NCBI GenBank assembly: GCA_964645245.1
Contig: CAZYBS010000003.1
Coordinates: 9,366 to 73,365, forward strand
Length of the DNA stretch: 64,000 nt
Source: an uncultured Candidatus Saccharibacteria bacterium
GTDB taxonomy: Bacteria; Patescibacteriota; Minisyncoccia; Phycocordibacterales; UBA9973
Direction of reading: 5' to 3'
Shown: positions 5,833 through 61,534 of the stretch, in pieces
Numbering within the stretch: position 1 is the first letter of the stretch
How the letters are laid out: each line of letters opens with the position of its first letter
The notes under the pieces: generated by a model
Told to the model about the DNA's origin: nothing
Database searches by the model: none
What the model saw: only the letters and a program-made list of their open reading frames with translations
Program-made: the position numbers and the translations under genes

Positions 5833-8393
<2,561 letters not shown>

Positions 8394-9034: not shown

Positions 9035-9547
9035 ATGAATCAAACAAATTTTGCTGAAAGTATGCTCAAGGGCCGGATGGCCGAAACTTTATTTGAGGAA
9101 TTAATGCACCAGTCTGGCAATATTATCTATCGTTTTGGCTATGAAGCAATTGTCCAAAACCTTGCCCAACTTGATAACAAGTTTGACCGTTACAGCGAAG
9201 TGGGAGAAAAAATCCGGGCAATCCCCGATTTTATTGTAGTTGATAAAAAAGGCAAGCCTGCTTTCGTGGAAGTAAAATTTCGGTGGAAACCAGAACTCCA
9301 CGAAAGCGACTATAAGATGCTTGAAAAAATAGATAAGTTTTGGAGCGCGAAGATTGTTTTTTTGAATTGCTGGGAGCAACCCTATTTCAGAGTTTGCGAC
9401 CCGCCGTACCTGGATAAGGCAAAGAAATTATTATTGAGACCACTATTGGATGAAGTCGATTGGAAGATTGATAAAAAAATCTACACCGAGTATGAAAATT
9501 TAGTTCATCGTTATCTAACTCCCACTCTCGTCCCGCCCAAGAAATAA
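9035..9547 (+). CDS. Hypothetical protein with PD-(D/E)XK nuclease-like motif (IPDFIVVDKKGKPAFVEVKFR)
   Basis: The spacing PD...(D)...E-V-K matches the restriction-endonuclease-like fold core. No further homology recognised. Confidence 0.45.
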   Translation: MNQTNFAESMLKGRMAETLFEELMHQSGNIIYRFGYEAIVQNLAQLDNKFDRYSEVGEKIRAIPDFIVVDKKGKPAFVEVKFRWKPELHESDYKMLEKIDKFWSAKIVFLNCWEQPYFRVCDPPYLDKAKKLLLRPLLDEVDWKIDKKIYTEYENLVHRYLTPTLVPPKK

Positions 9548-11235: not shown

Positions 11236-14200
11236 ATGGCAAAAGTGAGTACATTTGACCAGGAATATAAAAAGCTTAATAAAGCTCAAAAGGAAGCGGT
11301 GAACTCTATCGAGGGGCCAGTCATGGTGGTGGCCGGTCCGGGGACGGGCAAAACGCAGATATTGGCTCTGCGGATAGGAAATATACTTCTAAGAACAGAT
11401 ACCAAAGCTGACGGTATTTTATGCCTGACTTTTACGAATTCCGGTGTAAGAGCCATGAAAGAGCGCCTTCGCAAATACATTGGTTCAACCGGGAATAAGG
11501 TCAATGTTTTTACCTTTCACAGCTTTGGAATGAAAATCATTGAAGAATATTATGCCGTTCTTGACCTAGAAACAGTTCCAAAGTTGATGGATGAGACAGA
11601 TGCCCTAACGCTTTCTGATCAAGTTTTACACGACAATGACTGGGAATATATCCGTCCGCGTTCCGACGCTTCCAGATATTTCGGGGATTTAAAATCCTTG
11701 ATTTCATTGCTGAAGCGCGAGCGCCTGAGTCCGGAAGAATTTTTAATTGAAATTGAAAAAGATATCAGTGGTTTAAAAGAGAATCCGGAAAATATTTCTT
11801 CCCGAGGGGAAAGTAAAGGGCAAATCAGAAAAGAAATCTTAAAAAACATAGAAGGATTAAACCGCACGCGCGAAGTCGCTAAATTTTTCAAGCTCTACGA
11901 GGAAACAAAAAAAGAAAAGAATGTTTTTGATTATGATGATGTCTTGGAGAATTTAGTAAAAATTGTAGAAAATAGCGACCAGGCGCGGGATGAAATTCGG
12001 GAAAAGTATTTATATATTTTAATAGACGAGCATCAAGATTCCAGCGGAGTACAAAATGAATTTTTAGCTAGGGTTTGGGGAGAAGTTGAAAAACCAAATA
12101 TTTTCGTCGTCGGGGATGATCGCCAGCTGATCTACAGCTTTGGCGGGGCATCACTGGCGTATTTTGAGGGTTTTAAACATTCTTTTGGCAAGGCTAGCCT
12201 CATCACGCTAATTGATAATTATCGTTCTACCCAGGTCATTCTAGACTCTGCGCATGCGCTTTTGCAAAGCTCCATCACTAAGGAAAAACTCGTCAGTAAT
12301 CACCAGGAATCTCATCCATTGCGTCTGGTTGAAGCCGATTATCCCCGTGATGAGATTATCGCCTGTGCCTTGGATATAAAAGAGAAAATCAAGAAAGGCG
12401 TGGCTGCGAATGACTGCGCCATTTTAGTACCCAAAAATAAGCAAGTGCGCAGCACTATCACGATCTTAAAAGATATGAATATGCCGGTGGCCGGAGGTGA
12501 AATGATGGACCTTTTTGATTCGTCTGAAGCCGTGTCTTTCCTGCGAGTTCTGAAAATTGTCGCCAACCCGAATGATAGTGTGGCTTTGGCGGACTCTTTT
12601 TTTGATAAATATTCCCTCATTTCTCCACTCAAGGCTCATGAATCTATAAAAAGTAACAATATGCGTGAGTTTTCACTATTGAATATTAAAGAAGAAAAAA
12701 ATAATTTATCTGATGGTAATAATGAAATAAATATCTGGATTGGTAAATTGAAAATGTGGTTGGCGTCTTCTAATGAGCCTCTTTATTCTTTTATCCAAAA
12801 AGTCGGGACGGAGTTTTTGCTTGATACTGCAAAAAATCACGGCGAGCTGGTGGTGCGCATAGAAGTCTTAAGAACTTTACTGCACCTAGTTTTACTGCAA
12901 ATAGAAAAACCTGCCCGACCGGACGGTCGTTCGGGCGGGAATCCAAAGTTGAGCCTCAACGACTTTTTGAATTTTTTAGAGAGAGTAGAAAACTATGGAG
13001 AAAATATCCCCCTGGCCATATTTTCTGCTGATGACGGTGTGAAAGTGCTTACCCTGCATAGTTCCAAAGGACTTGAATTTGATTACGTCTGGATTGCGCA
13101 TATGGATGAAAAATCTTTTTCGGGCGGGAAAATCGGGAGCTTTTCTTTACCGGAATCCATCAAAGAAAAAGTTGATAAAAGAGATGCAGAAGTTTTAAAA
13201 CGGCAATTATATGTGGCGCTCACGCGCGCCAAAAGGTTCTGCACTGTTTCTTATGCCTTGCATTCGTATACAGGCAGAGACCAGGAATCGGCTCATATTG
13301 TGGCTGACCTGGAAGATAATTTTGAAAAACAAAATGCTACTCAGACGGAGAAAATTATTTTAAGCCGTGATCAGAGGGCTTATGTGGAAACAAAATCAAA
13401 AAAAGAAAAACATGCTAATTTGAATGACTTGGTAAAACTGGTCACTCGAGATTATGAAAGCCGGAAAGTATCCGTATCCCTCCTCAATAATTTTTTTGAG
13501 TGTCCGTGGAAATGGTATTTCAGGAATTTACTTCAATTGCCGGAGCCGAAGTCCGAGAGCCTAGAATTCGGAAATATTGTCCATGGCTCTATTGATGCAG
13601 TTTTGAAATTCATAAAAAAGCCGAACAGACGAGATTTGAAAAACATAATTTTACATCAAGTGAGAAAATCAGGTTTTGGCGACGAAAGAAAACAAAAAGA
13701 ATTAGCGGTTTTAGCTTTTAATATTGTTTTCCAATGGGTGAAGAATCGCCTTCCGGAAATAGAACTAAATCGGGAGAACGAAAAAAGTGTTTCCGTGAAA
13801 GACGATAGATTTCCGCATTTAAATATTTACGGAAAGATAGACTTGATAGAACATTTGGATGCCAAAAATGTTCGGGTGACGGATTTCAAGACCGGCAGTG
13901 TAAGAAAAAAAGGAGACATAGAAAAACTAAATGAAGACCCGGCCTTCGCTAAAAGCTTCGGCGAGGCAAGAGACAGAATGAGCGCCTATTTGCGCCAGCT
14001 CGCGATGTATTCATACTTAATAAAAGAAAGTTCTAAAAATAAATTGGATGCCCGAGAAAGCCGGCTTGAATTTTTAGAAGCCAAAGATAAAAAAGAGATT
14101 TTTTATGATAGAGTAATCACTCCAGAAGAAATTGAGCTACTAATAAAAGATATTTCTGATTATGATAATTTGGTCAAAAAAGGAGAGTGGACTGTGCGCC

Positions 14201-17548: not shown

Positions 17549-19647
<2,099 letters not shown>

Positions 19648-30857: not shown

Positions 30858-30957
30858 CTTGCCCCGCCATGGCGGGGTGAAGTATAATTGGTTAAGCAGT
30901 ATCGGGTCGTAACACTGCAAAGTTAGTTAAAGATTAATAATATTTATCTGAAACACT

Positions 30958-31991: not shown

Positions 31992-32011
31992 TATTTATCT
32001 TTATGTACTTT

Positions 32012-32046
32012 GTGAATAAATTATGCATATGCTAAAATTACTCACA
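32012..32046. repeat. 35-bp direct repeat (copy 1) containing palindrome GCATATGC and TAAAAT; lies upstream of the PaaX-like gene
   Basis: gtgaataaattatgcatatgctaaaattactcaca versus copy 2 at 32689-32723 (gtgaataaaatctgcatatgctaaaattactcaca), 32/35 identical. Confidence 0.7.
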
Positions 32047-32057
32047 ACACAAACAAT

Positions 32058-32663
32058 ATGAAGAATAAATATTTTGATAAATTTAGAGAGTTTCTGAATT
32101 CCGGAACACCGAATGCCAAAATAGTGGAGATTACCCTGTGTTTACTTGCTATTGCGTCAATACCAGCGCTTGTTCTCATCGCCGCTTCTATGGGTAATGC
32201 TGTGCAATTGTTTGGGCAATTCAAAACTTCTAAACGCTTTAGTAAAAAACAGATTACTGATTCATTTATCTATCTTCAGCGCCAGAAATTAATAGAGTAT
32301 ATAGCTGATAAAAATGGGAAAACAATAGTAGGAATTACCAAGAAAGGAGAGACGAGACTGAGAGCTTTTGATATTGATCTTATTAAAATCAAGAAACCCA
32401 AAAAATGGGATGGGAAATGGAGATTGGTAATGTTTGATATTCCGATAAGATTTACAAAGGGCAGAGAAGCTCTACGATATCACCTGAAAGAACTAGATTT
32501 TTTTCAATTCCAGAAATCTGCGTGGATTTATCCTTATCCTTGTGAAGATGAAATAATATTTATCGCCGATTTCTTCGGGGTAGGGAAGTATGTGGAAGTT
32601 TTAACCGCCGAAAGTATTTTAAGAGACGAAAAAATTAAGAGACATTTTGGGTTCATGAAATGA
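32058..32663 (+). CDS. PaaX-like / Cas2-fold regulator candidate (wHTH-like N-terminus + VMFDIP...SVWIYP C-terminal domain)
   Basis: KWDGKWRLVMFDIPIRFTKGREALRYHLKELDFFQFQKSAWIYPYP resembles the Cas2-like C-terminal domain of PaaX-family repressors. Weak call. Confidence 0.4.
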   Translation: MKNKYFDKFREFLNSGTPNAKIVEITLCLLAIASIPALVLIAASMGNAVQLFGQFKTSKRFSKKQITDSFIYLQRQKLIEYIADKNGKTIVGITKKGETRLRAFDIDLIKIKKPKKWDGKWRLVMFDIPIRFTKGREALRYHLKELDFFQFQKSAWIYPYPCEDEIIFIADFFGVGKYVEVLTAESILRDEKIKRHFGFMK

Positions 32664-32688
32664 AGTTATTTTTATTTTTAATAATGTG

Positions 32689-32723
32689 TGAATAAAATCT
32701 GCATATGCTAAAATTACTCACAT
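32689..32723. repeat. 35-bp direct repeat (copy 2)
   Basis: See copy 1. A third partial match (tagcatatgcggaaaag) is at about 32800. Confidence 0.7.
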
Positions 32724-33327: not shown

Positions 33328-36300
33328 ATGCATATAGAAAAAGCTCGGCCGAAGAAATATTTTTCAAGATATAAAAAGCCTCTAGTAGAATTTCCCAATT
33401 TGATTGAAGCTCAAGTCAAAAGTTTCAAGTGGCTGATGGAGCAGGGTATCGGCGAAGTTTTTAAGGAATTTTCTCCAATCTCCGATTACTCCGGAAAAAA
33501 ATTTCAATTGGATTTTACCTCGTTTTCACTAAGTGAGTGCAAGTACGACGAGAATAATGCTAAAATAAATAAACTTTCATATCAAGGGCTTTTGAAGGCT
33601 CGGGTAAAATTGACAAATAAAATTCTGGGCACCGCGAAAGAACAGGAGATTTTCATGTCGGAGTTTCCCTTGATGACCTCGCATGGGACTTTTATTATCA
33701 ACGGCGTAGAGCGCGTTATCGTGCCGCAGCTGGCTAGGAGTTTCGGAGTTTTCTTTACCGAGTCTGAAAATAAGGGTAATAGATATTTTGGAGCTAAAAT
33801 TATTCCAGCCCGTGGAGTTTGGATTGAAATAGAGTCAGAAGCGGATGGAGCGATTTACATCAGAATAGACAAAAAAAGAAAATTCCCCGCGACCGCGCTG
33901 CTTCGGGCTATGGGTTATGAAAATAATGAGGCTATCTTGAAAGCTTTTTCCGCCAAAGGCGCCACGCCTGCCGGCGGGCAGGGACCAGCCTCCCCGGCCT
34001 CGCCAAGCGAAGCGGGGCGGGCGGGCTGGGAAGAAACAATAAAAACTTGTTTGGCCAAAGATGGAGTCAAGAGTTTAAATGACTCGTATATTGAAATTTA
34101 CAAACGCCTCCGAGATGGTGATATGGCGACAGCTGATAATGCCAAAGAGTTCATCAACTCTTTGTTTACCGCGGAGCGCTACGATCTTTCTCCAGTCGGT
34201 CGCTTTAGGTTTAATCAGAGATTTAACAATGCCATGGACGAAGCGGCGCTCGCCCGCAGAACTATTTTCAAAGAAGATTTAGTGACGGTGATTATGAATA
34301 TCATTATTTTAAATAATACTCCGGGAGCCAAGTCTGATGACATAGATCATTTGGGTCAGAGGCGCGTGCGATTCGTCGGCGAAATACTTCAGCAGAAAGT
34401 GCGCACTGGCATGATGCAAATCAAGAGAAATATCCAAGACCGCATGTCTATTATTGACGTTGATACCGCCATGCCTATCGCTATTATCAATCAACGTCCG
34501 CTGCAAGCTCGCATCAAAGAATTTTTCACTACCAACCAACTTTCACAATTTATGGCGCAAGAAAATGTGCTTTACGAAATAGAGCATTTACGTACTCTCT
34601 CCGCTTTGGGACCTGGAGGACTGACCCGCGAGCGCGCGGGGCTGGAAGTTCGCGATGTGCATCCTTCCCACTATGGGAGAGTTTGCCCGATTCATACTCC
34701 GGAAGGCCCGAACATCGGACTTATTTTACACCTTTCCACCTATGCGAAAATAAATGAATTTGGAATTATTGAAACTCCGTATATGAAAGTTAAAAATGGC
34801 AAGCTGACTGGCGAAGTAGTTTACTTAAATGCACTGGAGGAGGAAAAATATAACATTGCCCATGCCGGAATTCCTTATGATGGAAATGGAAAAATAAATG
34901 AAGAAAAAGTGGAGGCTAGGATTAAAACAGAACCGGGCACTATTTCTCGAAATGAAGTTGATTTTATTGATGTTGCCGCCAACCAAGGTTTTTCTATAGC
35001 AACTTCTATGATTCCTTTCCTAGAACACAATGATGCCAATAGGGCCTTGATGGGAAGCAATATGCAAAAACAAGCCGTGCCTTGCGTACTGCCGGAAGCG
35101 CCATTGGTGGCAACCGGTATTGAAGAACTAGCATCACGAGATTCAGGCAGACTGGTCATAGCGCAAGAGGATGGCATTGTTTCATATTTAGATGCAAAAA
35201 AAATAATCGTTAAGGGAAAATCACCTGCCCGCAATGCTTCGCATAGCGATGCAGGCGGGGAGAAAACTTACCCACTCATAAACTTTATGAGGAATAACAA
35301 CTTTGCCGTATTTCATCAGCGTCCAGCCGTCAATGTTGGCCAAAAGATAAAGAAGGGTGAGGTGTTGGCAGATACTAGTAGTACGGTGGCTGGGCAGATT
35401 TCACTGGGGCAGAATATTTTTGTGGCTTTTTTATCTTGGTCCGGATCAAACTATGAGGATGCGATAATTATTTCTGAGCGTCTGGTGAAAAAGAGCAAAT
35501 TTACCAGTGTTTATGTTGAGGAATTTGTTTGTGTAGTTCGTGATACTAAACTCGGGCCGGAAATTACTACTCGTGATATACCGAATGTTGGAGAACTCAA
35601 GCTTAAAGACTTGGATGAAGATGGTATCGTTCGGATTGGGGCGGAAGTCAGGGAAAATGATATTTTAGTCGGTAAAATTACTCCAAAGGGCGAAACTGAA
35701 TTAACTCCGGAAGAGCGGCTATTGCGTTCAATTTTTGCCGAAAAAGCGCGTGATGTGAAAGATACATCACTTAGAATGGAACACGGCAAGCGCGGGCGCA
35801 TCATTGGTATAAAGATTTTCTCCCGTGACCTTGGACACTCACTGGAAGCGGGAATTATTAAAAAAATTGTGATTGAAGTCGCGCAAATCCGCAATATTTC
35901 AGTTGGAGACAAACTTTCCGGACGACATGGGAATAAGGGCGTTATTTCAACAATTCTGCCGGAAGAAGATATGCCTTATACCGCAGATGGTACACCAGTT
36001 GATATTATACTCTCGCCCTTGGGCATTCCTTCTCGTATGAACTTAGGACAAATTTTGGAAATGCATCTTGGTATGGCAGCTAACAGTCTTGGTTATCAAG
36101 CCATTGTTCCGCCATTTTTAGGAGCTAAGCATGAAGAAATTAAAGAAGAGTTGGAAAAAGCCGGACTTCCAGAAAATGGCAAGTTAAAACTTTTTGATGG
36201 ACGCACCGGGGAAGCCTTTCAGCAAGATGTCGCTGTCGGCTACATGTATATGTTGAAGCTTCATCACATGGTAGAAGACAAAATTCATATGCGTTCAATC

Positions 36301-39500: not shown

Positions 39501-40208
39501 ATTCCGAAAAATCCGGCAATTATTTCTGAGACTGACGGGGAAATAATTTCTATCACAGCTAAAGATGGAAAGCCCGCCCGCAATGCTTTCAGCATAGCTG
39601 ATGCAGGCAGGGAAAAAATAATTAAAGTGCTCTCTGATACTAAAATTGACAGTAAGCCAAACGAAATAGAATATCTTATGGCTTTTCGCAGAATGCCGAT
39701 AGTTAAAGTAGGCGACCGTGTTAAGAAAGGGGACCTTTTAACTGATGGGTCTGCCGACATCGCTGAAATCTTTAAACTTGGGAATAAAGAATTAGTTGAA
39801 GAATATATAATTCGAGAAATAAACAAAGTTTACGAGCTGCAGAGCGCTTCAATTTCCAGAAAGCATACAGAAATAATTATTCGTCAGATGTTTTCGCGCA
39901 GAAAAATAAAAGACGCGGGCGAGACCAATTTTTCTATCAGTGATATCGTAGAAAATACCGCATTTATTGAAGAAAACTCCAGGATTGGACAATTAAGTGG
40001 AAAAGAGGCAAAAGCGGAGACAGTGGTGCTAGGTATTACAGAAGTGTCGCTGCGCACTAAAAGTTGGCTCTCGGCTGCATCGTTCCAAAATACTAACCGC
40101 GTTCTGATTGAAAACGCCATCAAGGGCGGAGTGGACTCTCTCCGAGGACTTAAAGAAAATGTTATAATTGGACGATTAATCCCAGCCGGGACCGGATTTA
40201 AAAAATAA
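36588..40208 (+). CDS. rpoC: DNA-directed RNA polymerase beta' subunit
   Basis: Zn-binding [23 protein letters not shown], catalytic [11 protein letters not shown], trigger loop and bridge helix regions. Confidence 0.92.
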
Positions 40209-40214
40209 ATTTTT

Positions 40215-41987
40215 ATGAACTCTCCCGTTGATAAAATTAAGGAGAGGCTTTCAATCGAAGAAATAGTCTCTTCTTACATAAAACTAGATCGGGCAGGCAC
40301 GAACTTGAAAGCCAAGTGTCCATTTCACAATGAAAAGACACCGTCTTTTTTCGTCTCGCCTAACCGCGGGAGTTATTATTGCTTCGGCTGTGGAGCCAGT
40401 GGTGATATTTTCACTTTCATAGAAGAATTTGAAGGACTTGATTTTAAGGGCGCGCTTAAATTTCTAGCAAATAAGGCAGGAGTTCCGCTTGATTATTACA
40501 ATAAAGAGGAAGAGAGTGAAAAAGAGAGATTATACAGGGCAATAGAAGAGTCAACTGTTTATTTTTCTAATAATTTACTGCAAAATGTTGAAGTACTAGA
40601 ATATTTAAAATCTCGCGGATTAACCGATAGGAGCATAAAGGATTTCAGAATCGGATATGCCCTGCCAGATTGGCGTAAACTCTATGATTACTTAAAGTTT
40701 AAAAATTTTACTGACAATGAAATGGAGCATGCCGGTCTCGTCAAAAAGCCAGATGATACAAATAAATCAATGTACGACAGATTTCGTGGACGCATCATAT
40801 TTCCGATTTCTGATTCCAGCGGTCGCATCATAGCTTTCACAGGGCGAATTTTCCCTGCCTCCGCCGAAGGCGGATCCGCCTCCCCGGCCTCGCCAAGCGA
40901 AGCGGGGCGGGCTGGCGGAAAATATCTAAACAGTCCAGATACTATAATTTTCAGCAAGTCCGCGGTGCTTTATGGATTAGATAAGGCTAAAGAATCAATT
41001 CGCAAGAATAATTTTTCTATTTTAGTTGAAGGTCAGATGGATTTGGTATTATCACATCAAGCGGGATATAAAAATACGGTTGCAACATCTGGCACGGCTT
41101 TGTCCGACTCGACGGTTTCGAAAGAAAATGTTATTTCCAACTTAGGACTTATTCGTCGTCTTTCTCCAAATATTGTGTTAGCATTTGACGCAGATAAAGC
41201 AGGATTTAATGCCTCAAATAGAGCCGGCAGGATTGCTTTATCTCTGGGCATGGATGTGAAAGTAGCATTTATGCCCGAGGGCATGGATCCGGCTGACTTG
41301 ATTTCTCAAAATGGTTCTCTTGCTGGTCCGGATGCCTGGCGTCTTGCCATTAGAAATTCCAAACATATAATAGAATTTCTTTTAGAAAAAGTCTTAAAGG
41401 ATTCTGGAGGCGATACGCGCAAGGCCGGAAGGGGAATAAAAGAAAAAATATTGCCTTATGTAGACGCGCTTGAGAGTTCAATAGAAAAAATGCATTTTAT
41501 AAAAAAAATAAGCGATGCTTCGGGAATTCCGGAAAGTGCTCTTAAAGATGATTTAAAGACAATTGAACAAGAATTGAAATATGAAACAGAAGAAACAGAA
41601 ACTGCTAAAGAAAATGTGGAGAAAAAATTTAGAAAAGACCCAATTGAACGCAGGCTTTTAGGAATAGCTTTTTGGCAAGAGAGTATGCAAAATAGAACCA
41701 TAGACCCAGAACTTATTTTTAAAAAATTAGATAAAGTAAAAAAAGTTTACGAAGATATAAAAGAAGATCTAATTTACGAGGCAGAAGTATTTTATTCTAA
41801 TAGTGAAAATTTACAAAAAGACGTAAATGAGATGTTGCTGAATATTGAAGAAGAGTATTTAAATGAAGAACTTGTTAAAAAAATGATAGAACTTAAGAAT
41901 CTAAAAGATAAAAAAGAAGAAATAGAAATTTTAAAAAAGATAAACGAAATAAATAAAAGAAAAGAAGAAATTAAAAATAATCGTTAA
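40215..41987 (+). CDS. dnaG: DNA primase DnaG (carries an in-frame family C insert)
   Basis: Zn-ribbon CPFHNEKTPSFFVSPNRGSYYCFGCGASGD, Toprim EGQMDLVLSHQAGYKNTVATSGTAL...AFDADKAG. Confidence 0.88.
   Translation: MNSPVDKIKERLSIEEIVSSYIKLDRAGTNLKAKCPFHNEKTPSFFVSPNRGSYYCFGCGASGDIFTFIEEFEGLDFKGALKFLANKAGVPLDYYNKEEESEKERLYRAIEESTVYFSNNLLQNVEVLEYLKSRGLTDRSIKDFRIGYALPDWRKLYDYLKFKNFTDNEMEHAGLVKKPDDTNKSMYDRFRGRIIFPISDSSGRIIAFTGRIFPASAEGGSASPASPSEAGRAGGKYLNSPDTIIFSKSAVLYGLDKAKESIRKNNFSILVEGQMDLVLSHQAGYKNTVATSGTALSDSTVSKENVISNLGLIRRLSPNIVLAFDADKAGFNASNRAGRIALSLGMDVKVAFMPEGMDPADLISQNGSLAGPDAWRLAIRNSKHIIEFLLEKVLKDSGGDTRKAGRGIKEKILPYVDALESSIEKMHFIKKISDASGIPESALKDDLKTIEQELKYETEETETAKENVEKKFRKDPIERRLLGIAFWQESMQNRTIDPELIFKKLDKVKKVYEDIKEDLIYEAEVFYSNSENLQKDVNEMLLNIEEEYLNEELVKKMIELKNLKDKKEEIEILKKINEINKRKEEIKNNR
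40857..40918. repeat. Family C GC-rich element in-frame in dnaG (encodes PASAEGGSASPASPSEAGRAGG). Hairpin CCGCCgaaGGCGG + the same 35-mer
   Basis: Identical 35-mer to the rpoB copy. The flanking hairpin differs in sequence but keeps its pairing. Confidence 0.8.
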
Positions 41988-41997
41988 TTAAAAAAGT

Positions 41998-43194
41998 ATG
42001 AAAAAGAAAAACAAAAAATTAAATAGAAAAAGAAAAAAGCTTAAAATCAAAAAAATAAAGAGAATTAAGAAAAAAATTTTAAAGAAAAAAGCTGTCAAAA
42101 AAATAAAAAAATTATCTTCAATTGGGAAAAAAGCGGAAAGTTTAGCTCGCATTTCCAGTGAGCTTATAGAAAAAGGACGCAAAAGGGGATTTATTACTTA
42201 TGATGAAATATTAAAAACTTTCCCTGACATTGAAAATAATATTCTATTTTTAGACGAACTTTATGAGAAATTTGGAATTGCCGGGATTGATGTGCTAGAA
42301 GGCGGAAATTTGCTTAATCTTGATATTGATTTGACTGATAAAGATTTAAATAAATCGAGCATGCATGATTCTATCCAAATGTATCTTAAGGAAATAGGTC
42401 AGTATCCGCTGATTCATGCGGGTGATGAAAAGGAACTTGCCAAACGCATTGAGCATGGCGATTTAGAAGCGAAAAATTTGCTGGCGCGCGCCAACTTGCG
42501 TCTGGTCGTTTCAATTGCTAAAAAATATGTGGGCAGGTCCGCCAATTTGACTCTGTTGGATTTAATTCAGGAAGGTAATTTAGGATTATTCAAGGCAGTT
42601 GAAAAATTTGATTGGACTAAAGGATATAAATTCTCTACTTATGCGACTTGGTGGATTCGCCAGTCTATTACTCGCGCGCTGGCTGACCAGTCCAGAACTA
42701 TTCGCATACCAGTGCATATGGTGGAGACAATTTCTAAATATAAACAAACGCATCGCAGACTTAGCCAGGATTTAGGCCGAGAGCCATTGGCCGAAGAAAT
42801 TGCCACGGAAATGGGTATTCCGGTGGAAAAAATCCATGTAATTGAAAACATTTCGCAAGAGACAGTTTCGTTGGAACAGCCCGTCGGGGACGATGATGAT
42901 AAGTCAACCCTGGAAAACTTTATTCCAGATGATAAAATTTTACGTCCAGACCAAGAGTCTTCCCGCCGAATTCTCTCAGATCAAATTCGCGAAGTTTTGA
43001 ATGAGCTCAATCCCAAGGAGCGCAAAATACTGGAGATGCGTTATGGATTACTAGATGGTATTCAACACACCCTGGAGCGAGTAGGCGAAGAATTTGGCGT
43101 GACTCGTGAGCGTATTCGTCAAATCGAAGCGAAAGTGCACGAAAAACTCCGCCAGCACGAAAAAATCTCCCGCTTAAAGAGCCACTTTGACTAG
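41998..43194 (+). CDS. rpoD: RNA polymerase primary sigma factor (sigma-70 family) with Lys-rich N-terminus
   Basis: Region 1.2/2 ([15 protein letters not shown]...[37 protein letters not shown]...[13 protein letters not shown]), region 4 ([20 protein letters not shown]). Confidence 0.9.
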
Positions 43195-43937
43195 TTTTCA
43201 ACAAACCCAGCAAATCCAGCAAGAAATCCAGCAAGGGTAGTCCTTGCTGGACTATAGTGTTGACGAAATATTTCTTCTTGTGTTTTGAAATCTAATTTCA
43301 CGTTTTTTATATATTCTGGGATAAAAGAAAAGTCAATAATGCTTGATTCTGGCCGATTATTTTTTAGAAAATCTGGATAACTTGATAATTGATATTTTTT
43401 TAAAAATTCTTCGGCTTCTTTTTTATTTTTTATACCTGTTTCTTTCCATTTTCCATCTAAGATTGAAAGAGGATTAAGATGCAAGTATGAAAATATATAC
43501 ATATATTGCGCTTCATTGTTTAAGTGCTCGGATCGAAATGGATGTGTAAATAGAGGACCGCTACGCTCGTATTTTGTGTTGAAATACATTGAATATGCAG
43601 TCAGAAGTTTACCCATAAATTTACTTATACCGCCCTCGGTATGCTCATATAAAATCAAATGAAAATGATTTGGCATTAGACAATAACCTAAAATTGAAAC
43701 CAAGGCTTTCTCTCTTTCTTCTTTAAAAATTTCTCTAAGCTGATTTTTATTTTTTTGTAAAAAATTATCCATTCTAAACGATACGTCTTGATTCATAATA
43801 TACAAAAGAGCCACGAAACGACTATAGTCCCTTGCGTTCAAAAATATCTTGCGTTTTTCTACGCCGCGAGAATAAATGTGGTAATGTTCATTTTCCGCAA
43901 ATGGGGTTTTTCGATACATTCCTAGATTGTATAACAA
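43191..43937 (-). CDS. Y1 HuH transposase (IS200-like / REP-associated tyrosine transposase family), 248 aa
   Basis: [15 protein letters not shown]...[16 protein letters not shown] (HuH motif)...[12 protein letters not shown]. The C-terminal [11 protein letters not shown] is encoded by the terminal hairpin repeats. Confidence 0.7.
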
Positions 43938-43975
43938 AATCGAAACTCCAGCAAGGACTACCCTTGCTGAATTGC
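43191..43975 (-). mobile_element. Compact IS200/IS605-like or RAYT-like element: Y1 (HuH) transposase gene flanked by inverted hairpin repeats CCAGCAAGG-n5-CCTTGCTGG
   Basis: Hairpin at 43237-43259 (loop gtagt) and its reverse complement at 43951-43972 (loop actac) bracket the ORF. The element abuts the rpoD stop. Confidence 0.65.
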
Positions 43976-43980
43976 TTTAA

Positions 43981-45026: not shown

Positions 45027-45171
45027 TTTTATATGTTATTATAATAATGTGTTATATTGTACACATTATATTTTGACTTGCAACAAGCGTAGAGGTATAA
45101 TTGTAGCATTAATATCAACCTGCTTGACTTGTCGTTTCGGGCGGGACTTATAAGCTAATATTAAAAAATAT

Positions 45172-47424: not shown

Positions 47425-47579
47425 CCGGAGTATCTTTATGACTGCGCTCGAACCTACTTTATCAAAAACGGCTGAAAAAAGACAGCCACTCCGCCGCCCG
47501 CCGAAAAATCAGTTCGGCTCGGCGACTTTGAGTTTGTAGACCGCTTTGGCGCCCTCTTTGTTTTTTAAGATTCTGCAGA

Positions 47580-48220: not shown

Positions 48221-48296
48221 TGGAGCCGCCTCTCGGACTCGAACCGAGGACCGACTGTTTACAAAACAGTTGCTCTACCAACTGAGCTAAGGCGGC
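48221..48296 (-). tRNA. tRNA-Thr (anticodon UGU); CCA encoded
   Basis: Reverse complement GCCGCCT-TA-GCTC-AGTTGGTA-GAGC-A-ACTGT-TTTGTAA-ACAGT-CGGTC-CTCGG-TTCGAGT-CCGAG-AGGCGGC-T-CCA with all stems perfect. Confidence 0.9.
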
Positions 48297-48526
48297 AATA
48301 CTTTCTTTAAAAATCTTCTTCCTGCTGCTGACTTTAAATATAATTCTCTTTTTCTTGCCTCTTCAAATGTAGCATATCGTTCTTTATAAACAAGTATTAA
48401 CTCTTTCATGTGGTTCGTAGTTATTGTGTGCCCAGAATGGTGTTCAGCCAGTCTTCTTTTCAGATTATTTGTCATTCCCTTATATACTTTTCCTTTATTA
48501 TCTTTTAGTACATAAACTGTAAACAT
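48287..48526 (-). CDS. Small GIY-YIG nuclease-domain protein (79 aa) ending inside the 5' end of tRNA-Thr
   Basis: FTVYVLKDNKGKVYKGMTNNLKRRLAEHHSG is the GIY-YIG core. The last codons (CCG CCT TAG) are tRNA nucleotides 3-10. Confidence 0.7.
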   Translation of the reverse strand: MFTVYVLKDNKGKVYKGMTNNLKRRLAEHHSGHTITTNHMKELILVYKERYATFEEARKRELYLKSAAGRRFLKKVLPP

Positions 48527-48554
48527 ATTTTTACAAAACAGTTACTCCTACCAA

Positions 48555-48598
48555 CTCCCGCCCGAACGTGCCGAAAGCAGTTCGGTACGGGCGGGGAG
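48555..48598. repeat. Family B GC-rich hairpin, intergenic copy (CTCCCGCCCGAACG..GTTCGGTACGGGCGGGGAG)
   Basis: Shares the 12-mer cccgcccgaacg with the mreC in-frame copy. Also 10-bp outer stem plus inner GCCGAAagcagTTCGG. Confidence 0.65.
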
Positions 48599-48625
48599 CT
48601 TTATTCCGGCGAATTATTTACTACT

Positions 48626-50894: not shown

Positions 50895-51665
50895 TCTTTA
50901 TAGACGTCCGACATCTACAGTGATATATTATAGGCATGAGAAAACATCCTTTTATCACTGGTTCATATTTTCATATTTACAACAGAGGCGTTGATAAACG
51001 TGATATTTTCATGGACGGAAAAGATGTGGAAAGATTTTTATTGTGCATGAAGTTGTTTGCATATAAAGATCCCGTAGGAAGTTTAGAATTAGCGCTTCGT
51101 GAACAAGAATCATTTGTAGACGTTCGACATCTCCAAATTCCGGCAGATAGAAAACGATTGGTTTCCATTGTTGAATATTGTCTTAACCCAAATCATTTTC
51201 ATTTTATACTGAAACAGGAACTTGGTGGTGGTATTAGTGAATTTATGAAGCGATTACAGGGTGGTTACACAAGGTATTTTAATGATAAAAATAACCGTAG
51301 CGGAGCGTTACTTCAAGGTAAATTTAAATCAAGCTACGCAGAGAAAGAAAATTATTTTGAAATGCTTTTTGCATATGTGATGTGGAATTATAAGGTCCAC
51401 AATATCTCTAAAAATAAATTAAAATTAACACGTAGTAGTGAAGAAGAATATAAAACAGCCAATTTTTATATAATAAATCCAAAAGAAGGAAAAAAGTTTT
51501 TAGAATGGTTCGGTGATTATAAAAGTTTCCTTAAACATGGAAAGGAAATAATTGATCTGGTGCGGGAAAGTAGGGGTAAGAAACCCTGGAAAGCCGACAG
51601 TAAAGAGGAAGTAAGTTTTGATTATAATGATGATTAAATGTAGACGTCCGACGTCTACAAAGGTG
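50895..51665 (+). mobile_element. Second IS200/RAYT-like element: Y1 transposase gene flanked by near-palindromic hairpins TAGACGTCCGAC(A/G)TCTACA
   Basis: Hairpin at 50902-50920 upstream and 51642-51660 downstream (TGTAGACGTC-C-GACGTCTACA). A degenerate copy lies inside the ORF at about 51105. Confidence 0.65.
50936..51637 (+). CDS. Y1 HuH transposase (IS200-like / RAYT family), 233 aa
   Basis: SYFHIYNRGVDKRDIF...VEYCLNPNHFHFILKQ (HuH)...YVMWNY. Paralogous to 43191-43937 at roughly 35% identity by eye. Confidence 0.7.
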   Translation: MRKHPFITGSYFHIYNRGVDKRDIFMDGKDVERFLLCMKLFAYKDPVGSLELALREQESFVDVRHLQIPADRKRLVSIVEYCLNPNHFHFILKQELGGGISEFMKRLQGGYTRYFNDKNNRSGALLQGKFKSSYAEKENYFEMLFAYVMWNYKVHNISKNKLKLTRSSEEEYKTANFYIINPKEGKKFLEWFGDYKSFLKHGKEIIDLVRESRGKKPWKADSKEEVSFDYNDD

Positions 51666-51736: not shown

Positions 51737-53020
51737 ATGAAACAATCAAAACTTTTTACTAAAACTAGGAAAGAAATACCGGCGGACGAAGTGTCTAAAA
51801 ACGCCGAATTACTTATTCGCGGGGGCTTTATTCACAAGGAAATGGCTGGAGTTTACAGCTATTTGCCCCTGGGACTTCGGGTGCTGAAGAAAATTGAAAA
51901 TATAATTAGAGAAGAAATGAATAAAGTTGGCGGGCAGGAAGTCCTGATGTCTTCTTTTCAACCAAAAGAAAATTGGGAAAAAACCGGCCGATGGGAGGTA
52001 ATGGATGATTTGTATAAAGTGAGTGATGCGTCCGGCCGGGAAGTTGCCTTGGGTCCCACTCATGAAGAGATTGTTGTCCCTATTTTAAAAAATTATGTTT
52101 CCTCGCACAAAGATTTTCCTATATATATTTATCAGATTCAAAACAAATTTAGAATGGAACTTCGCGCGAAATCCGGGATGCTTCGGGGCAGAGAATTTGT
52201 CATGAAAGATATGTATTCTTTTCACGCGAGAGCGGAAGATTTTGAAAAATTTTATAATAAAATGAAAGATGTTTATAAGACTATTTTTCAAAGAGTCGGT
52301 ATTGGCCACTTGACTTATATAACTTTCGCTTCGGGCGGAACTTTCTCCAAATATTCACACGAATTTCAGACCATTACTCCCATCGGTGAAGATATTATTT
52401 ATGTTGACGAAGCAAGCGGTACGGCCATCAATCAAGAAGTTTTTAATGATGAAGTTTTAAGCCAGCTAAATTTGACCAAAGAAAAATTAATTGAGCATAA
52501 GGCTATTGAAATCGGTAATATTTTTGACTTAAAGACAAAATATTCACAGCCATTTGACTTATCGTACACGGACGAAAAAGGAGAAAAACACATTGTTTTG
52601 ATGGGTTGTTATGGCATAGGATTAGGACGTCTTTTAGGCACGGTAGTAGAGGTTCTTTCCGATGATAAGGGCATCATTTGGCCGGAATCAATAGCGCCGT
52701 TTCAAGTGCATTTATTGGCTCTGGGAGATGATGAGGAAATTTCAATGGAAGCTGATAAAGTTTACCAGAGTTTATTGAAAGCTAATATTGAAGTTTTATT
52801 TGACGATAGGAGAGATGTGTCGGCCGGAGAAAAGTTTGCTGATTCGGATTTACTGGGTATTCCTTGGCGCGCAGTTATTTCTACTCGAAGTTTAAAAGAG
52901 GGAGGGATAGAATTAAAAAAACGTACGGAACCCGCCTCCGCTAAAGCTTCGGACGGGCAAGGAAAAAGTAAAATTGTTTCACTAAAAGAATTAATCAAAT
53001 TACTAGCACCTAGAACCTAG
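51737..53020 (+). CDS. proS: Prolyl-tRNA synthetase, bacterial-type core lacking the editing (INS) domain
   Basis: Aligns with E. coli ProRS N-terminus and class II motifs (LRAKSGMLRGREFVMKDMYSFH; GCYGIGLGRLLG), anticodon-binding C-terminus. The C-terminal PASAKASDGQGKS is encoded by a GC-rich family B-like hairpin. Confidence 0.85.
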   Translation: MKQSKLFTKTRKEIPADEVSKNAELLIRGGFIHKEMAGVYSYLPLGLRVLKKIENIIREEMNKVGGQEVLMSSFQPKENWEKTGRWEVMDDLYKVSDASGREVALGPTHEEIVVPILKNYVSSHKDFPIYIYQIQNKFRMELRAKSGMLRGREFVMKDMYSFHARAEDFEKFYNKMKDVYKTIFQRVGIGHLTYITFASGGTFSKYSHEFQTITPIGEDIIYVDEASGTAINQEVFNDEVLSQLNLTKEKLIEHKAIEIGNIFDLKTKYSQPFDLSYTDEKGEKHIVLMGCYGIGLGRLLGTVVEVLSDDKGIIWPESIAPFQVHLLALGDDEEISMEADKVYQSLLKANIEVLFDDRRDVSAGEKFADSDLLGIPWRAVISTRSLKEGGIELKKRTEPASAKASDGQGKSKIVSLKELIKLLAPRT

Positions 53021-53040
53021 CACCTAAAACCTAATTCAAA

Positions 53041-54087: not shown

Positions 54088-54901
54088 AAAAATAAAGAGA
54101 AAAAAGTTTCTGTATGTTGTGTTTTTTGCCATTATTTTACTTATCTTGTTTTATTTTAGATTAGGTATTTTCAGCGGTCTGGCTTATGCTAGTCATAAAA
54201 TTTTTCGTCCTGTTTTAATTTTAGGGAATAATATTGGTGAAAAAGTTTCCAATCTTGGTTCATTTTTTGTTTCCAAAAATTCTCTTTATAAACAAAATGA
54301 AAATCTTAAATCTCAATTAAATGAAAATAAAGCAATGATGATAAATTATAATTCTGTCCTGGCTGAGAATATTAACCTTAAAGAAATCCTGGGCAGGAAA
54401 AAAGAGCAAACTAATTTTATTTTGTCCGCTATATTGTCCAAACCGAACCAAAGTCTTTATGACACGCTGATTATTGACGTAGGCACAAATGGGGGAGTAA
54501 AAATAGGAAACATAATTTTTGCCCTCGGTAATGTGCCTATCGGGCGTGTGTCGGATGTCTACCAAAGTTCTTCAAAAATTATATTGTTCTCAAATGCAGG
54601 TGAAAAGACACAAGTAGTAATTGCTCCTAAGGATACCCGCCCGAACGACCGGAGTCGTCCGGTCGGGCAGGTTTTTATAGAGATAGTCGGGCGAGGGGGA
54701 GGGAATTTTGAAATGGCTTTACCAAGAGATTTCACGCTCTCCAAAGGAGATCAGATAGTTTTGCCTGGTATTAATCCTTATGTTTTAGGCACTGTTCAGA
54801 CGATAATTTCCGATCCGCGTGATCCTTTTGTCAAGGCTTTGCTGGTCAGTCCGGTGAATATACAAGAGCTTAAATTTGTGGAAGTAGAGTTGCAAAAGTA
54901 A
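54068..54901 (+). CDS. mreC: Rod shape-determining protein MreC (with in-frame family B GC-rich insert)
   Basis: Follows mreB; N-terminal TM, coiled coil (NENLKSQLNENK), C-terminal beta domain (GDQIVLPGINPYVLG). The track starts at TTG 54056. Confidence 0.75.
   Translation: MSYLLDRKIKRKKFLYVVFFAIILLILFYFRLGIFSGLAYASHKIFRPVLILGNNIGEKVSNLGSFFVSKNSLYKQNENLKSQLNENKAMMINYNSVLAENINLKEILGRKKEQTNFILSAILSKPNQSLYDTLIIDVGTNGGVKIGNIIFALGNVPIGRVSDVYQSSSKIILFSNAGEKTQVVIAPKDTRPNDRSRPVGQVFIEIVGRGGGNFEMALPRDFTLSKGDQIVLPGINPYVLGTVQTIISDPRDPFVKALLVSPVNIQELKFVEVELQK
54636..54671. repeat. Family B GC-rich hairpin in-frame in mreC (encodes TRPNDRSRPVGQ)
   Basis: cccgcccgaacgaccggagtcgtccggtcgggcagg: inner stem GACCGGA/TCCGGTC, outer imperfect stem. 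Confidence 0.75.
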
Positions 54902-56452: not shown

Positions 56453-56923
56453 ATGAAAAATTATTTTATTGGTTTTGCTGTATTAGTTATTTTTTTTGTA
56501 TCTTATCACTCTTGGACGGCCGTCAATTTTGATAATATAAAATATGTTCGGATAGCCGGGCAGAATATTAAAGTTGAACTTGCTTTGACCGAAAGGGAGC
56601 AAGAAAAAGGGCTTTCCGGAAGAAGCGGACTCGAAGAAGATAAAGGCATGTTGTTTGTTTTTTCCGCCCAAGGCGGATTCGCCTCTGGCGGAGATAAAGC
56701 TAACCACCCTAGATTTTGGATGAAGGATATGAATTTCGCAATAGATATAATTTGGATTGGGGAGGATTTACGAATAGTTTACATAAAAAAAGATGCTCGG
56801 CCCGAATCTTATCCGGAAACTTTCGGCTCTGACCAAAATTCCAAATATGTTTTGGAAGTTATTGCCGGTTTCGCGGATAAAAATAATTTGAAAAAAGGGG
56901 ATAGGGTGAAGCTCGTTTACTAA
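56453..56923 (+). CDS. DUF192 (COG1430) family protein with signal/TM N-terminus
   Basis: IKVELALTEREQEKGLSGRSGLEEDKGMLFVF...MKDMNFAIDIIWIGED is the DUF192 core. Confidence 0.65.
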   Translation: MKNYFIGFAVLVIFFVSYHSWTAVNFDNIKYVRIAGQNIKVELALTEREQEKGLSGRSGLEEDKGMLFVFSAQGGFASGGDKANHPRFWMKDMNFAIDIIWIGEDLRIVYIKKDARPESYPETFGSDQNSKYVLEVIAGFADKNNLKKGDRVKLVY

Positions 56924-60335: not shown

Positions 60336-60394
60336 ATGGAATAATTGTACAAAAAGAGACTGCACAATGCAAGTTGCCTTGATGTATCTTTTTG

Positions 60395-60467
60395 TGGACC
60401 CTAGCGGTCTCGAACCGCTCACCTCCTCATTGCAAATGAGGCGCTCTACCAGATGAGCTAAGGGCCC
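60395..60467 (-). tRNA. tRNA-Ala (anticodon UGC) with G3:U70; CCA not encoded
   Basis: Reverse complement GGGCCCT-TA-GCTC-ATCTGGTA-GAGC-G-CCTCA-TTTGCAA-TGAGG-AGGTG-AGCGG-TTCGAGA-CCGCT-AGGGTCC-A. Confidence 0.88.
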
Positions 60468-60488
60468 CTCTGCTCGCGAGCAGAGGGG

Positions 60489-60761
60489 CTAAGGGCCCTC
60501 CACTTGCAAGCCAGACGAATTCTTTATTCTCTTTTTCAACTCTTTATATCCAGCGGAAAAACGTTTCAACATGTCTTCGCGATGTTTGGCGTCAGCTTGT
60601 GCTTTATATGCTTCATAATAAACAAGCTGAAAAGGTGCTTTGTGTTTTGTTGAAACATTTTTACCGCTATTATGTTCCACCAAACGCCTTTTCAAATCAT
60701 TTGTGTATCCAATGTATAACTCCTTTAATCTAGCACTCTTTAATACGTAAACATAATACAT
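60489..60761 (-). CDS. Small GIY-YIG nuclease-domain protein (90 aa) immediately upstream of tRNA-Ala
   Basis: YYVYVLKSARLKELYIGYTNDLKRRLVEHNSG is the GIY-YIG core. Stop lies 21 nt from the tRNA 5' end. The gap holds the palindrome CCTCTGCTCGCGAGCAGAGG flanked by a duplicated GCTAAGGGCCC. Confidence 0.7.
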   Translation of the reverse strand: MYYVYVLKSARLKELYIGYTNDLKRRLVEHNSGKNVSTKHKAPFQLVYYEAYKAQADAKHREDMLKRFSAGYKELKKRIKNSSGLQVEGP

Positions 60762-61003
60762 GTTTTTGTATTCTACATTCTATCTTATTTTCTCAATAAT
60801 GCAAATTTTGTTGTTGTTTTTTCCGTCATTTCTGGTACTATGGTAAAAGTTCTTTTTAAAATAAATAAATTCCGGGGTAGTTGAAATACGATAGTATTTC
60901 AAAGGCGGAGGCACGAAAGGTGCCGAGTCGGGGTCGCGAGATTTTTCAGTAGAAAAATACTTGTGACCAGCGGTGTCCGCTGACCTATCTCGAATGAATA
61001 AAT

Positions 61004-61323
61004 TCCGGGGTAGCTCAGCGGTAGAGCGATCGCCTGTAGAGAGATGCAGCTTCCTAAAGAAACTTAGGAATGAAAACAAGGTGAATTCGGGGAAGCCCTT
61101 CGAGATAAACTCTCAGGGTAATCCCGAGCCAAGCTCTGGTAAGCCAGAGAAGGTGTAGAGACTATCCATTTATGGAGTACATCAACACTAAATGTTGATG
61201 GAAGCGCCTTGCTCCTAAACTTATAGCGCAGGCTATGAATATGGAGATGATATAGTCCACACTTCTAGTAATAGGAGATAAAGTGTAAGCGATTGGTCGT
61301 AGGTTCGATCCCTACCCCCGGAG
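61004..61323 (+). tRNA. tRNA-Asn (anticodon GUU) interrupted by a 248-nt group I intron in the anticodon loop (exons 61004-61037 and 61286-61323)
   Basis: Exons: TCCGGGG-TA-GCTC-AGCGGTA-GAGC-G-ATCGC-CTGT|TAA-GCGAT-TGGTC-GTAGG-TTCGATC-CCTAC-CCCCGGA-G. The spliced loop CUGUUAA and discriminator G73 match bacterial tRNA-Asn. Confidence 0.75.
61038..61285 (+). ncRNA. Group I self-splicing intron (IC3-like, as in bacterial tRNA introns)
   Basis: P7 strands GTAGAGACTATCC and GATGATATAGTCC. P4/P6 conserved ACTCTCAGGGTAATCCCGAGCCAAGC (compare cyanobacterial tRNA-Leu intron CUCAGGGAAACC...AAUCCUGAGCCAAGCC). IGS GCAG pairs with exon CUGU with U.G at the 5' splice site. Terminal omega-G at 61285. Confidence 0.75.
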
Positions 61324-61534
61324 CTCGTAAAAATCTTAGGTCGCTAGAAATGGCGGCCTTTGATTTTTTGAGCTACGGGGAGAAAGCAAAATGTTTTGCT
61401 TTCGTGTAGGGAGCGAAAAGCTTTTGTGTCTTTTTAGAAACTTGTTTAAAAAAAGTACAAAAGGTATACTGCCCCTGTAAGGGGAGATAACCTACCCCCG
61501 GAGCCAAATTAGATAAATGTAACAATCTAAAATT

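Follow-up and report, generated by a model that had tools for sequence, protein, structure and literature searches.

The 64,000-nucleotide (nt) stretch of DNA analyzed here (the window; positions 9,366 to 73,365 of contig CAZYBS010000003.1 in assembly GCA_964645245.1, from an uncultured Candidatus Saccharibacteria bacterium) carries three copies of a small GC-rich hairpin, one in mreC, one in a UvrD/PD-(D/E)XK helicase-nuclease gene, and one in a spacer beside a GIY-YIG nuclease gene and a tRNA gene. The copies in mreC and in the helicase-nuclease gene are exact, lineage-specific insertions of a palindrome of 36 and 30 nt, respectively. Moreover, across metagenomic loci the hairpin is a near-constant neighbor of genes for single-domain GIY-YIG proteins of ~80 amino acids (aa; UPF0213/SLX1-like) located in tRNA loci. 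On balance, and with modest confidence, we read the hairpin as a mobile, non-autonomous element, a constant neighbor of the GIY-YIG genes; its copies within genes would be filtered by length and stop codons, and the nuclease would recognize and spread it.

The mreC copy (54636 to 54671, plus strand) is 36 nt long, is inserted at GAT A^TT TTT, and is translated in frame as TRPNDRSRPVGQ within the MreC stretch DTRPNDRSRPVGQ, in agreement with the initial annotation of the window. Its outer stem consists of CCCGCCCG and CGGGCAGG, with AACG as the bulge and ACCGG/CCGGT as the inner stem. The helicase copy (12910 to 12939; 30 nt) has the element on the minus strand, and the plus-strand frame through it gives PARPDGRSGG. 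The initial annotation had described the segment at 12910 to 12940 as an in-frame PARPDGRSGGN and as the reverse complement of the mreC copy apart from a 6-nt indel; both statements hold, the indel being GGAGTC. In this DNA of ~40% GC, the 12-mer CCCGCCCGAACG occurs three times (0.13 occurrences expected from shuffles), the third being, as had been reported, in the intergenic hairpin next to tRNA-Thr and the GIY-YIG gene.

Comparison with orthologs defined the limits of both coding inserts. The 10 extra residues of the helicase were lacking in 19 of 19 orthologs (44 to 77% identity), which read EK-NP where the window reads EK[PARPDGRSGG]NP; the insert is therefore precisely the 30-nt palindrome placed between native codons. 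The MreC of the window is 100% identical to a protein of the metagenome-assembled genome "Parcubacteria group bacterium Gr01-1014_24", with relatives among Nomurabacteria/Paceibacterota of the candidate phyla radiation (CPR). Its insertion site, bounded by EKTQVV..K and F.EIVGRGGGNFEM, was empty in 8 of 31 orthologs, and it was empty in the orthologs nearest the window (P0002, P0009, P0006, and P0013). When four mreC loci were compared at the DNA level, the window and L002 carried the 36-mer at ..AT A^TT TTT, the closest relative in this comparison (L004) had an empty site, and L003 carried a reverse-complement copy 4 nt upstream of the window's point (AGG^GAT GTT TTT), in which ACGAC/GTCGT of the window's copy is replaced by the compensatory ATGAC/GTCAT. 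No target-site duplication was seen at filled versus empty sites in mreC, in the helicase gene, or in the tRNA fragments described below. Insertion is thus precise, with neither duplication nor loss of target bases, and occurs in either orientation. A further 30-nt copy, TCCGCCCGACCGGACGGTCGTTCGGGCGGG, which nearly matches the helicase copy of the window, was observed in gyrA of L003 (about 18350 to 18384).

The mreC copy appears to be a recent gain, since the nearest MreC relatives of the window in a rough neighbor-joining tree were all empty at the site. In the same tree, at least four separate branches had the peptide form TRPND..PVGQ, which corresponds to the orientation found in the window, and three had the opposite orientation. 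In other lineages the same loop was occupied by at least three other families of GC palindromes, including the one found in rpoB and rpoC of the window. The MreC loop is therefore an insertion hot spot that has been targeted repeatedly and independently, in both orientations. An AlphaFold model of MreC, of low confidence (mean predicted local distance difference test score of 55), weakly suggests a coil between two strands as the location of the insert.

The element ranges from 28 to 45 nt in length. Common to all subfamilies are CCCGCCCG, a 4-nt AAYG bulge, an inner stem-loop, and CGGGCGGG; the outer stem comprises 8 to 9 bp (CCCGCCCG(A)/(T)CGGGCGGG), the bulge is on one side only, and the inner stem-loop is variable, with ACTGA/TCAGT, ACCGG/CCGGT, and TRCCGAA/TTCGGTA as variants of its stem. 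Folding was strong at all three sites of the window (z = -2.9 to -5.1). In an alignment of 36-nt copies, three of the four inner-helix pairs were changed on both sides (UA in 28 and CG in 11 copies; AU in 24 and GC in 12) and 92% of the cells were paired, while the outer stem is uninformative for covariation because the search pattern had fixed it. The bulged hairpin, with its covariation, is conserved across phyla. An alternative pairing between the bulge (ACGA) and the loop (TCGT) received partial support and was absent from the tRNA-linked subfamily, so a model that nests the inner stem within the outer stem and bulge was retained. The flanks of the copies showed a weak preference for A at -3 and T at +3 and no GTAG. 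Conserved asymmetric bulges of this kind are read by proteins that recognize folded single strands at IS200/IS605 ends and attC sites. No Rfam 15 family matched the hairpin at the gathering score, the window scan yielding RNase P, three tRNAs, and a group I intron.

A covariance model built from 50 copies of 36 nt (R1) was run unfiltered over the window and recovered three members, namely, the mreC copy (61.8 bits), the helicase copy (41.9 bits), and the intergenic copy at 48557 to 48595 (23.4 bits). The intergenic copy has only the outer stem plus GAACG in common with the two coding copies, and the hairpin, which the initial annotation had placed at 48555 to 48598 and called perfect, carries a bulge and a G-U pair. 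The membership proposed for other sites was narrower than first thought. None of the supposed partial versions, at 45136 to 45150, at 47490 to 47530, and in proS, reached an E value below 10 with R1. The proS segment, a GC-rich imperfect palindrome in the 3' region of the gene (52931 to 52960, plus strand; 30 nt encoding the 10 aa PASAKASDGQ), is absent from the L002 and L003 orthologs and is a genuine lineage-specific insertion, but not a demonstrable member of the family. Likewise, the hairpins in pilD (2690 to 2709) and after rpsP (30858 to 30877), which had been listed as relatives, share only CCCGCC/GGCGGG with the element (R1 E value of about 0.7); aligned to one another in opposite orientation, they match at 19 of 20 nt and form a separate mini-family. 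As for the suggestion that the window holds at least eight coding insertions of GC-rich hairpins, about 12 such islands do lie in 10 open reading frames (ORFs), but three of them (mreC, helicase, and proS) were verified against orthologs.

The intergenic copy (39 nt, plus strand; subfamily CCCGCCCGAACGTGCCGAA..TTCGGTACGGGCGGG) stands in a compact arrangement with a nuclease gene and two versions of one tRNA. Flanked by GCTC and AGTTGG, it splits the D arm of a partial, displaced tRNA-Thr and precedes the start codon of the GIY-YIG gene by 30 nt. When set against the intact tRNA, the displaced fragment consists of two parts on the minus strand, the first at 48596 to 48610 (GCCGGAATAAAGCTC; acceptor strand and 5' side of the D stem) and the second at 48527 to 48556 (AGTTGGTAGGAGTAACTGTTTTGTAAA; D loop to anticodon loop), which ends at the GIY-YIG start codon; fragment and intact gene are linked by a 27-nt repeat (48530 to 48556 versus 48258 to 48283). 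The GIY-YIG gene (48287 to 48526, minus strand) encodes a single domain of 79 aa, UPF0213/SLX1-like, with the C-terminal motif KSAAGRRFLK. Its last codons and stop codon lie within the intact tRNA-Thr(UGU) gene (48221 to 48296, minus strand), which follows and overlaps it. The protein matched Pfam GIY-YIG (PF01541) at 2e-11 and, among PDB profiles, UPF0213 (1ywl) at 9.5e-14, the structure-specific nuclease SLX1 at 5e-6, and I-TevI at 0.14, and its score for NCBIfam grpIintron_endo was far below the cutoff. The catalytic residues Y5, Y15, R25, H29, and E61 are invariant in the family, and the UPF0213-like single-domain GIY-YIG proteins as a whole comprise at least 7,896 clusters at an E value of ≤1e-5.

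A protein-first search with four GIY-YIG query sequences returned 375 relatives in JGI metagenomes, of which the best 80 were examined. Sufficient upstream sequence was available at 75 of these loci, and in 68 of the 75 a hairpin preceded the GIY-YIG start codon by no more than 150 nt, in 61 cases by no more than 40 nt; since the loci are the best 80 of 375 relatives, this proportion applies to this nuclease subfamily. The subfamily represented by the intergenic copy of the window was also found upstream of GIY-YIG genes in many of these loci (L129 to L208). In 71 of 80 loci a tRNA gene, for Ala, Thr, Phe, Ile, Val, Lys, Asp, or His, lay directly 3' of the GIY-YIG gene, and 42 GIY-YIG genes overlapped the tRNA by 9 nt, such that their TAG stop codon is formed by U8-A9-G10 of the tRNA. 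Upstream of the gene lay a partial 5' copy of the same tRNA, in which the hairpin was placed exactly at position 9/10, 13/14, or 20 to 22 or in the anticodon loop, with junctions TA^GCTC, GCTC^AGTT, or GGTA^GAGC and no duplication. The order of the cassette is a partial tRNA copy with the hairpin, the GIY-YIG ORF, and an intact tRNA overlapping the stop codon of the ORF. A further tRNA copy downstream, disrupted by a hairpin in the same manner and in some cases nearly complete, was often present, and a second hairpin occurred just past the downstream tRNA in 21 of 66 loci. Among the loci selected by the hairpin instead, small GIY-YIG ORFs were present in 12, and in 6 of these 12 the ORF abutted the hairpin or lay within ~110 nt of it.

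We also considered that the hairpin might interrupt complete tRNA genes. Its deletion, with 0 to 3 nt trimmed on each side, gave no restored tRNA in ARAGORN; hence, the hosts are tRNA fragments rather than interrupted complete genes. A target in the loops of existing hairpins was likewise not upheld for solo copies, whose flanking stems were not generally enriched (mean of 2.73 versus 2.66, with a small tail only). As an observation apart, hairpins nested in the loops of other hairpins were seen in L130, L157, L173/L174, and L153 (for instance, CCCGCCCGAACGACTG[CCAGCCCGAC..CTGGCGGG]AAGTCGTTCAGTCGGGCGGG), which suggests repeated hits on the same structure.

To describe the wider distribution of the element, a set of species-representative genomes was scanned with the pattern CCCGCCCGAAYGA-N5-22-GTCGGGCRGG, which fixes the outer stem and for which we estimate a handful of matches by chance. 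At least 117 loci were found. Among the matches listed, the hosts included many CPR lineages, Bacteroidota, Planctomycetota, Ignavibacteria, and Omnitrophota, the Bacteroidota comprising the isolates Agriterribacter humi, Zeaxanthinibacter enoshimensis, and Danxiaibacter flavus as well as a complete Chitinophagaceae chromosome; one listed match only, in a genome of 71% GC, resembled a chance hit. Inside long ORFs, which is the sense of "coding" here, lay 37 of the 119 listed copies, their hosts including ORFs for aldehyde dehydrogenase, Pgk, AlaRS, SecA, DNA polymerase I (PolA), and malic enzyme, as named from the translations. Thus, the initial proposal of one GC-rich hairpin family, present in frame and in either orientation in unrelated genes as well as between genes, was borne out by the ortholog alignments together with this cross-genome census. 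Moreover, a near-identical 36-mer occurs in unrelated genes, tRNA fragments, and spacers of several phyla, and its presence in both Patescibacteria and Bacteroidota implies horizontal movement by some vehicle. The consensus 36-mer had no match among PLSDB plasmids or INPHARED phages, and IMG/VR contributed seven contigs only, with nothing informative.

The census also bears on the reading frame. The length of the core was a multiple of three in 34 of 37 coding copies versus 48 of 82 other copies among those listed, and the 29-nt form, with 20 listed copies, was never coding. All six combinations of phase and orientation were used in coding copies, and the resulting peptides were unrelated. That the hairpins of one genome always preserve the frame reflects survivorship; frame preservation is selection among surviving insertions and not a property of the element. 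Avoidance of stop codons in all six frames was tried as an explanation and rejected, as stop-free frames were no more frequent than in shuffled controls, so the element is not specially adapted to coding regions. Judging from the multiple-of-three length filter, the coding copies are probably translated as extra residues.

Under the reading that we favor, the element would be a small, non-autonomous, mobile GC-rich hairpin. The nuclease may use the invariant stem and bulge to recognize the hairpin in its folded or cruciform form, and its cleavage would supply the breaks through which solo copies spread. Inside genes, only copies with a multiple-of-three length and a stop-free host frame would survive, to be translated as 10 to 12 extra residues in tolerant loops. 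In tRNA loci, the cassette would provide an intact tRNA, leaving the resident copies disrupted. Hairpin and nuclease would then act like repetitive extragenic palindromic (REP) sequences and their REP-associated tyrosine transposases (RAYTs), with a different catalytic family, and may cross phyla together. More tentatively, and as a possibility that we would not rate as probable, the hairpin and the minimal GIY-YIG nuclease may represent a cross-phylum class of selfish DNA, forming cassettes that split or duplicate tRNA genes, with solo copies spreading into tRNA fragments, other hairpins, and, in frame, essential proteins; conserved proteins of CPR bacteria, Bacteroidota, and Planctomycetota would in that case continually gain loops of 10 to 12 residues.

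Several points weigh against a nuclease-driven element. What ties the GIY-YIG nuclease to the hairpin is adjacency, from which we infer mobilization. The gene-adjacent hairpin occurs in both orientations (42 versus 19) and its position within the tRNA fragment is variable, which is as compatible with independent insertions as with a cis-element that is fixed. In the window, the copy adjacent to the GIY-YIG gene belongs to an inner-stem subfamily different from that of the two coding copies, and elsewhere (L092, L107, and L083) there are hairpin-bearing tRNA fragments with no adjacent GIY-YIG ORF. GIY-YIG homing enzymes usually leave staggered breaks, and precise, duplication-free insertion is more typical of HUH/Y1 single-strand transposases. 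In addition, the search pattern behind the census kept the outer stem constant, and the nuclease loci are those of the best-scoring relatives.

Some of these points favor an indirect link, in which the cassettes make redundant tRNA copies and fragments, a hairpin preferring tRNA sequences (assumed to be D-arm, anticodon, or T-loop DNA) lands there neutrally, and other machinery moves it. Such a link, which we consider unlikely, would require an extreme hit rate, with ~90% of the fragments occupied, and no other candidate enzyme is consistently near; nor do the solo sites show a general structural target. It would nonetheless fit the varying position and orientation of the hairpin within tRNA fragments, the fragments that bear a hairpin with no neighboring ORF, the hairpins carried by nearly complete second tRNA copies past the intact one, and the nesting of hairpins in other hairpins (L130, L157, and L173).

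The chemistry of insertion directs attention to a second alternative, namely, that these are REP-like hairpins moved by RAYT-like Y1 (HUH) transposases through single-strand "peel and paste". Duplication-free insertion and seamless empty sites suit HUH chemistry, and two Y1_Tnp genes are present in the window (43191 to 43937 and 50936 to 51637), with others in L003, L008, L048, L094, and L101. However, the RAYT-like genes of the window are each flanked by another palindrome of their own (GTAGACGTCCGACGTCTAC in one case and CAGCAAGG..CCTTGCTG in the other), no RAYT-like gene adjoined a CCCGCCCG hairpin in ~200 loci, the nearest being more than 600 nt away, and the element is without the 5' GTAG of classical REPs; we therefore judge this route improbable. 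Least credible of all, and largely refuted, is the notion that the copies, rather than being mobile DNA, are independently selected motifs (a useful peptide, or an RNA hairpin acting as regulator or terminator) or are excised from RNA in the manner of introns, for although the fold is strong (z as given above) and a T-run follows the mreC copy, six reading phases with unrelated peptides are used, the same 36-mer is found in unrelated genes, tRNA fragments, and spacers across phyla, a simple terminator scan flags neither coding copy, both being inside ORFs, Rfam offers no match, and the multiple-of-three rule in coding copies opposes RNA-level removal.

Two observations concern the Y1 genes themselves. 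The gene at 50936 to 51637 (plus strand) matched Pfam Y1_Tnp at 2e-7 and scored below the cutoff of NCBIfam REP_Tyr_transpos; the palindrome GTAGACGTCCGACGTCTAC, which starts with GTAG like classical REPs, flanks it at 50900 to 50918 and 51640 to 51658, and a third, degenerate copy lies within the gene at 51116 to 51134. The second gene (43191 to 43937, minus strand; Y1_Tnp at 1.4e-9) is ~83% identical to the first over 47 nt and is bracketed by inverted copies of a different palindrome, TCCAGCAAGGACTACCCTTGCTG, one in its own 3' coding end (43221 to 43251) and the other at 43947 to 43977.

Compared with known systems, the element is a selfish, gene-invading palindrome with a novel partner and a novel range, and it lacks defining features of each of its closest analogs. 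Rickettsia palindromic elements (RPEs) are reportedly selfish palindromic repeats found in many, often essential, protein genes and in RNA genes, and translation is said to turn them into additional surface loops. RPEs and the element have in common that they insert in frame into protein genes that are unrelated and are absent from orthologs. RPEs, however, are 100 to 150 bp long, occur only in Rickettsia, and lack a known partner enzyme; the element measures 28 to 45 nt, occurs in several phyla (CPR, Bacteroidota, and others), and has a consistent nuclease-gene neighbor. This distinction was drawn from length and host range.

REP and REPIN palindromes occur as solo copies and flanking the gene of a dedicated nuclease/transposase, and their bulges suggest recognition as folded single strands. 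The present element is likewise a short (20- to 40-nt), dispersed, GC-rich imperfect palindrome, the window holding three copies and other genomes at least 117 loci. The partner, however, is an HUH/Y1 enzyme in REP/RAYT systems and a GIY-YIG protein in a tRNA locus here; no RAYT-like ORF adjoined a CCCGCCCG hairpin in L005 to L121, and those of the window are flanked by other palindromes; and an extragenic location with a 5' GTAG is not the rule, as 37 of the 119 listed copies are intragenic and GTAG is absent. Miniature inverted-repeat transposable elements differ in having terminal inverted repeats and a target-site duplication, whereas here the whole element is palindromic and no duplication was seen. 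An intrinsic terminator, a GC-rich stem with a T-run at gene ends, does not describe the coding copies, neither of which was flagged by the consensus scan.

Two further comparisons involve GIY-YIG genes directly. The mobile GC clusters of fungal mitochondria are hairpins in an AT-rich genome, situated in coding sequence (with in-frame examples in var1, and the byp elements) and in spacers, near GIY-YIG and other homing genes. They resemble the element in that GC-rich hairpins occupy coding regions and spacers alongside GIY-YIG genes; they differ in being organellar, in their sequences, and in that some are bypassed in translation, whereas the multiple-of-three rule points to ordinary translation of the element's coding copies. 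Free-standing and intron-borne GIY-YIG homing endonucleases are exemplified by I-TevI and the T4 Seg proteins. With these the window cassette shares a GIY-YIG core encoded by a selfish cassette within or beside conserved genes, tRNA clusters among them, and the partner protein has the conserved Tyr, Tyr, Arg, His, and Glu of the GIY-YIG superfamily. Unlike the I-TevI/Seg type, which has a DNA-binding domain, it consists of the catalytic domain only (79 aa), with UPF0213 and SLX1 as its closest solved relatives. Target disruption of the I-TevI/Seg type was not found, as an intact tRNA copy persists beside the gene. The cassette contains no intron ribozyme; it combines a partial duplicate of the tRNA with a palindrome. 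A full-text literature search found no description of the hairpin element and did not find the 12-mer in the papers searched, and no paper was found when GIY-YIG was combined with YhbQ.

To our knowledge, no enzyme has been identified for RPEs. If the favored reading is correct, it would offer a candidate for the enzyme that partners gene palindromes inserted in frame, and it would suggest a role for the very large, uncharacterized family of UPF0213-like single-domain GIY-YIG proteins. It would also explain a recurrent source of GC-rich indels in conserved CPR proteins, indels that affect alignments, phylogenies, structure prediction, and gene calling. The tRNA-locus cassette architecture described here would be directly testable.

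A second small GIY-YIG gene was noticed in the window (60464 to 60761, minus strand; 90 aa), the end of which runs into a tRNA-Ala 5' fragment, GGGCCCTTAG. It is followed by a different, perfect palindrome, GCCCCTCTGCTCGCGAGCAGAGGGGC, and then by an intact tRNA-Ala (60394 to 60467), so that the same cassette logic is seen with another hairpin family. Nearby, a tRNA gene at about 61004 to 61325 (plus strand) is interrupted at 61028 to 61278 by a group I intron (58 bits with Rfam RF00028); ARAGORN found this tRNA only after removal of the intron, and with an uncertain anticodon. The 5' end of the tRNA gene is partly duplicated at 60860 to 60880.

The window contains further families of GC-rich palindromes inside genes, including rpoB/rpoC, rpoB/dnaG, ligA, and DUF192. 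Segments of rpoB (35227 to 35266) and rpoC (39576 to 39618) share an in-frame family, CCYGCCCGCAATGCTT..GATGCAGGCRGGG, with the peptide PARNAS..DAGG, which is also present in the MreC hot spot of L210. Palindromes of the CCCCTCC/GGAGGGG type, found in ligA and at the T2SS-F 3' end (932 to 1020, 6777 to 6817, and 7573 to 7641; including a 57-nt repeat pair that is 89% identical), fill the same hot spot in L211. Composite GC-rich islands of 69 to 89 nt in rpoB (33949 to 34037) and dnaG (40853 to 40921) share a 39-nt block that is 97% identical, and they resemble nested or adjacent palindromes. The family TTTCCGCC.AAGGCGGAT..GCCTCTGGCGGA occurs in the DUF192 gene (56661 to 56692) and near a pilin gene (1699 to 1730), and this type was also observed in L012, in the D loop of a tRNA fragment adjoining a GIY-YIG gene.

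Other repeats are of a different nature. A long ORF at 3052 to 4647 with extensive GGC/GGT (glycine-rich) repeats and ~73% GC, which has no relation to the palindromes, is the source of many of the window's GC spikes. An AT-rich direct repeat of 34 nt, ACTAGCACCTAGAACCTAGCACCTAAAACCTAAT, is found at the proS 3' end, across the stop codon (53002 to 53035), and at 19398 to 19431 (85% identical). Finally, a 36-nt AT-rich near-palindrome, TGTGAATAAA.T.TGCATATGCTAAAATTACTCACA, occurs at 32011 to 32046 and 32687 to 32722 (94% identical); the two copies flank the ORF at 32058 to 32663 in intergenic gaps and look operator-like.

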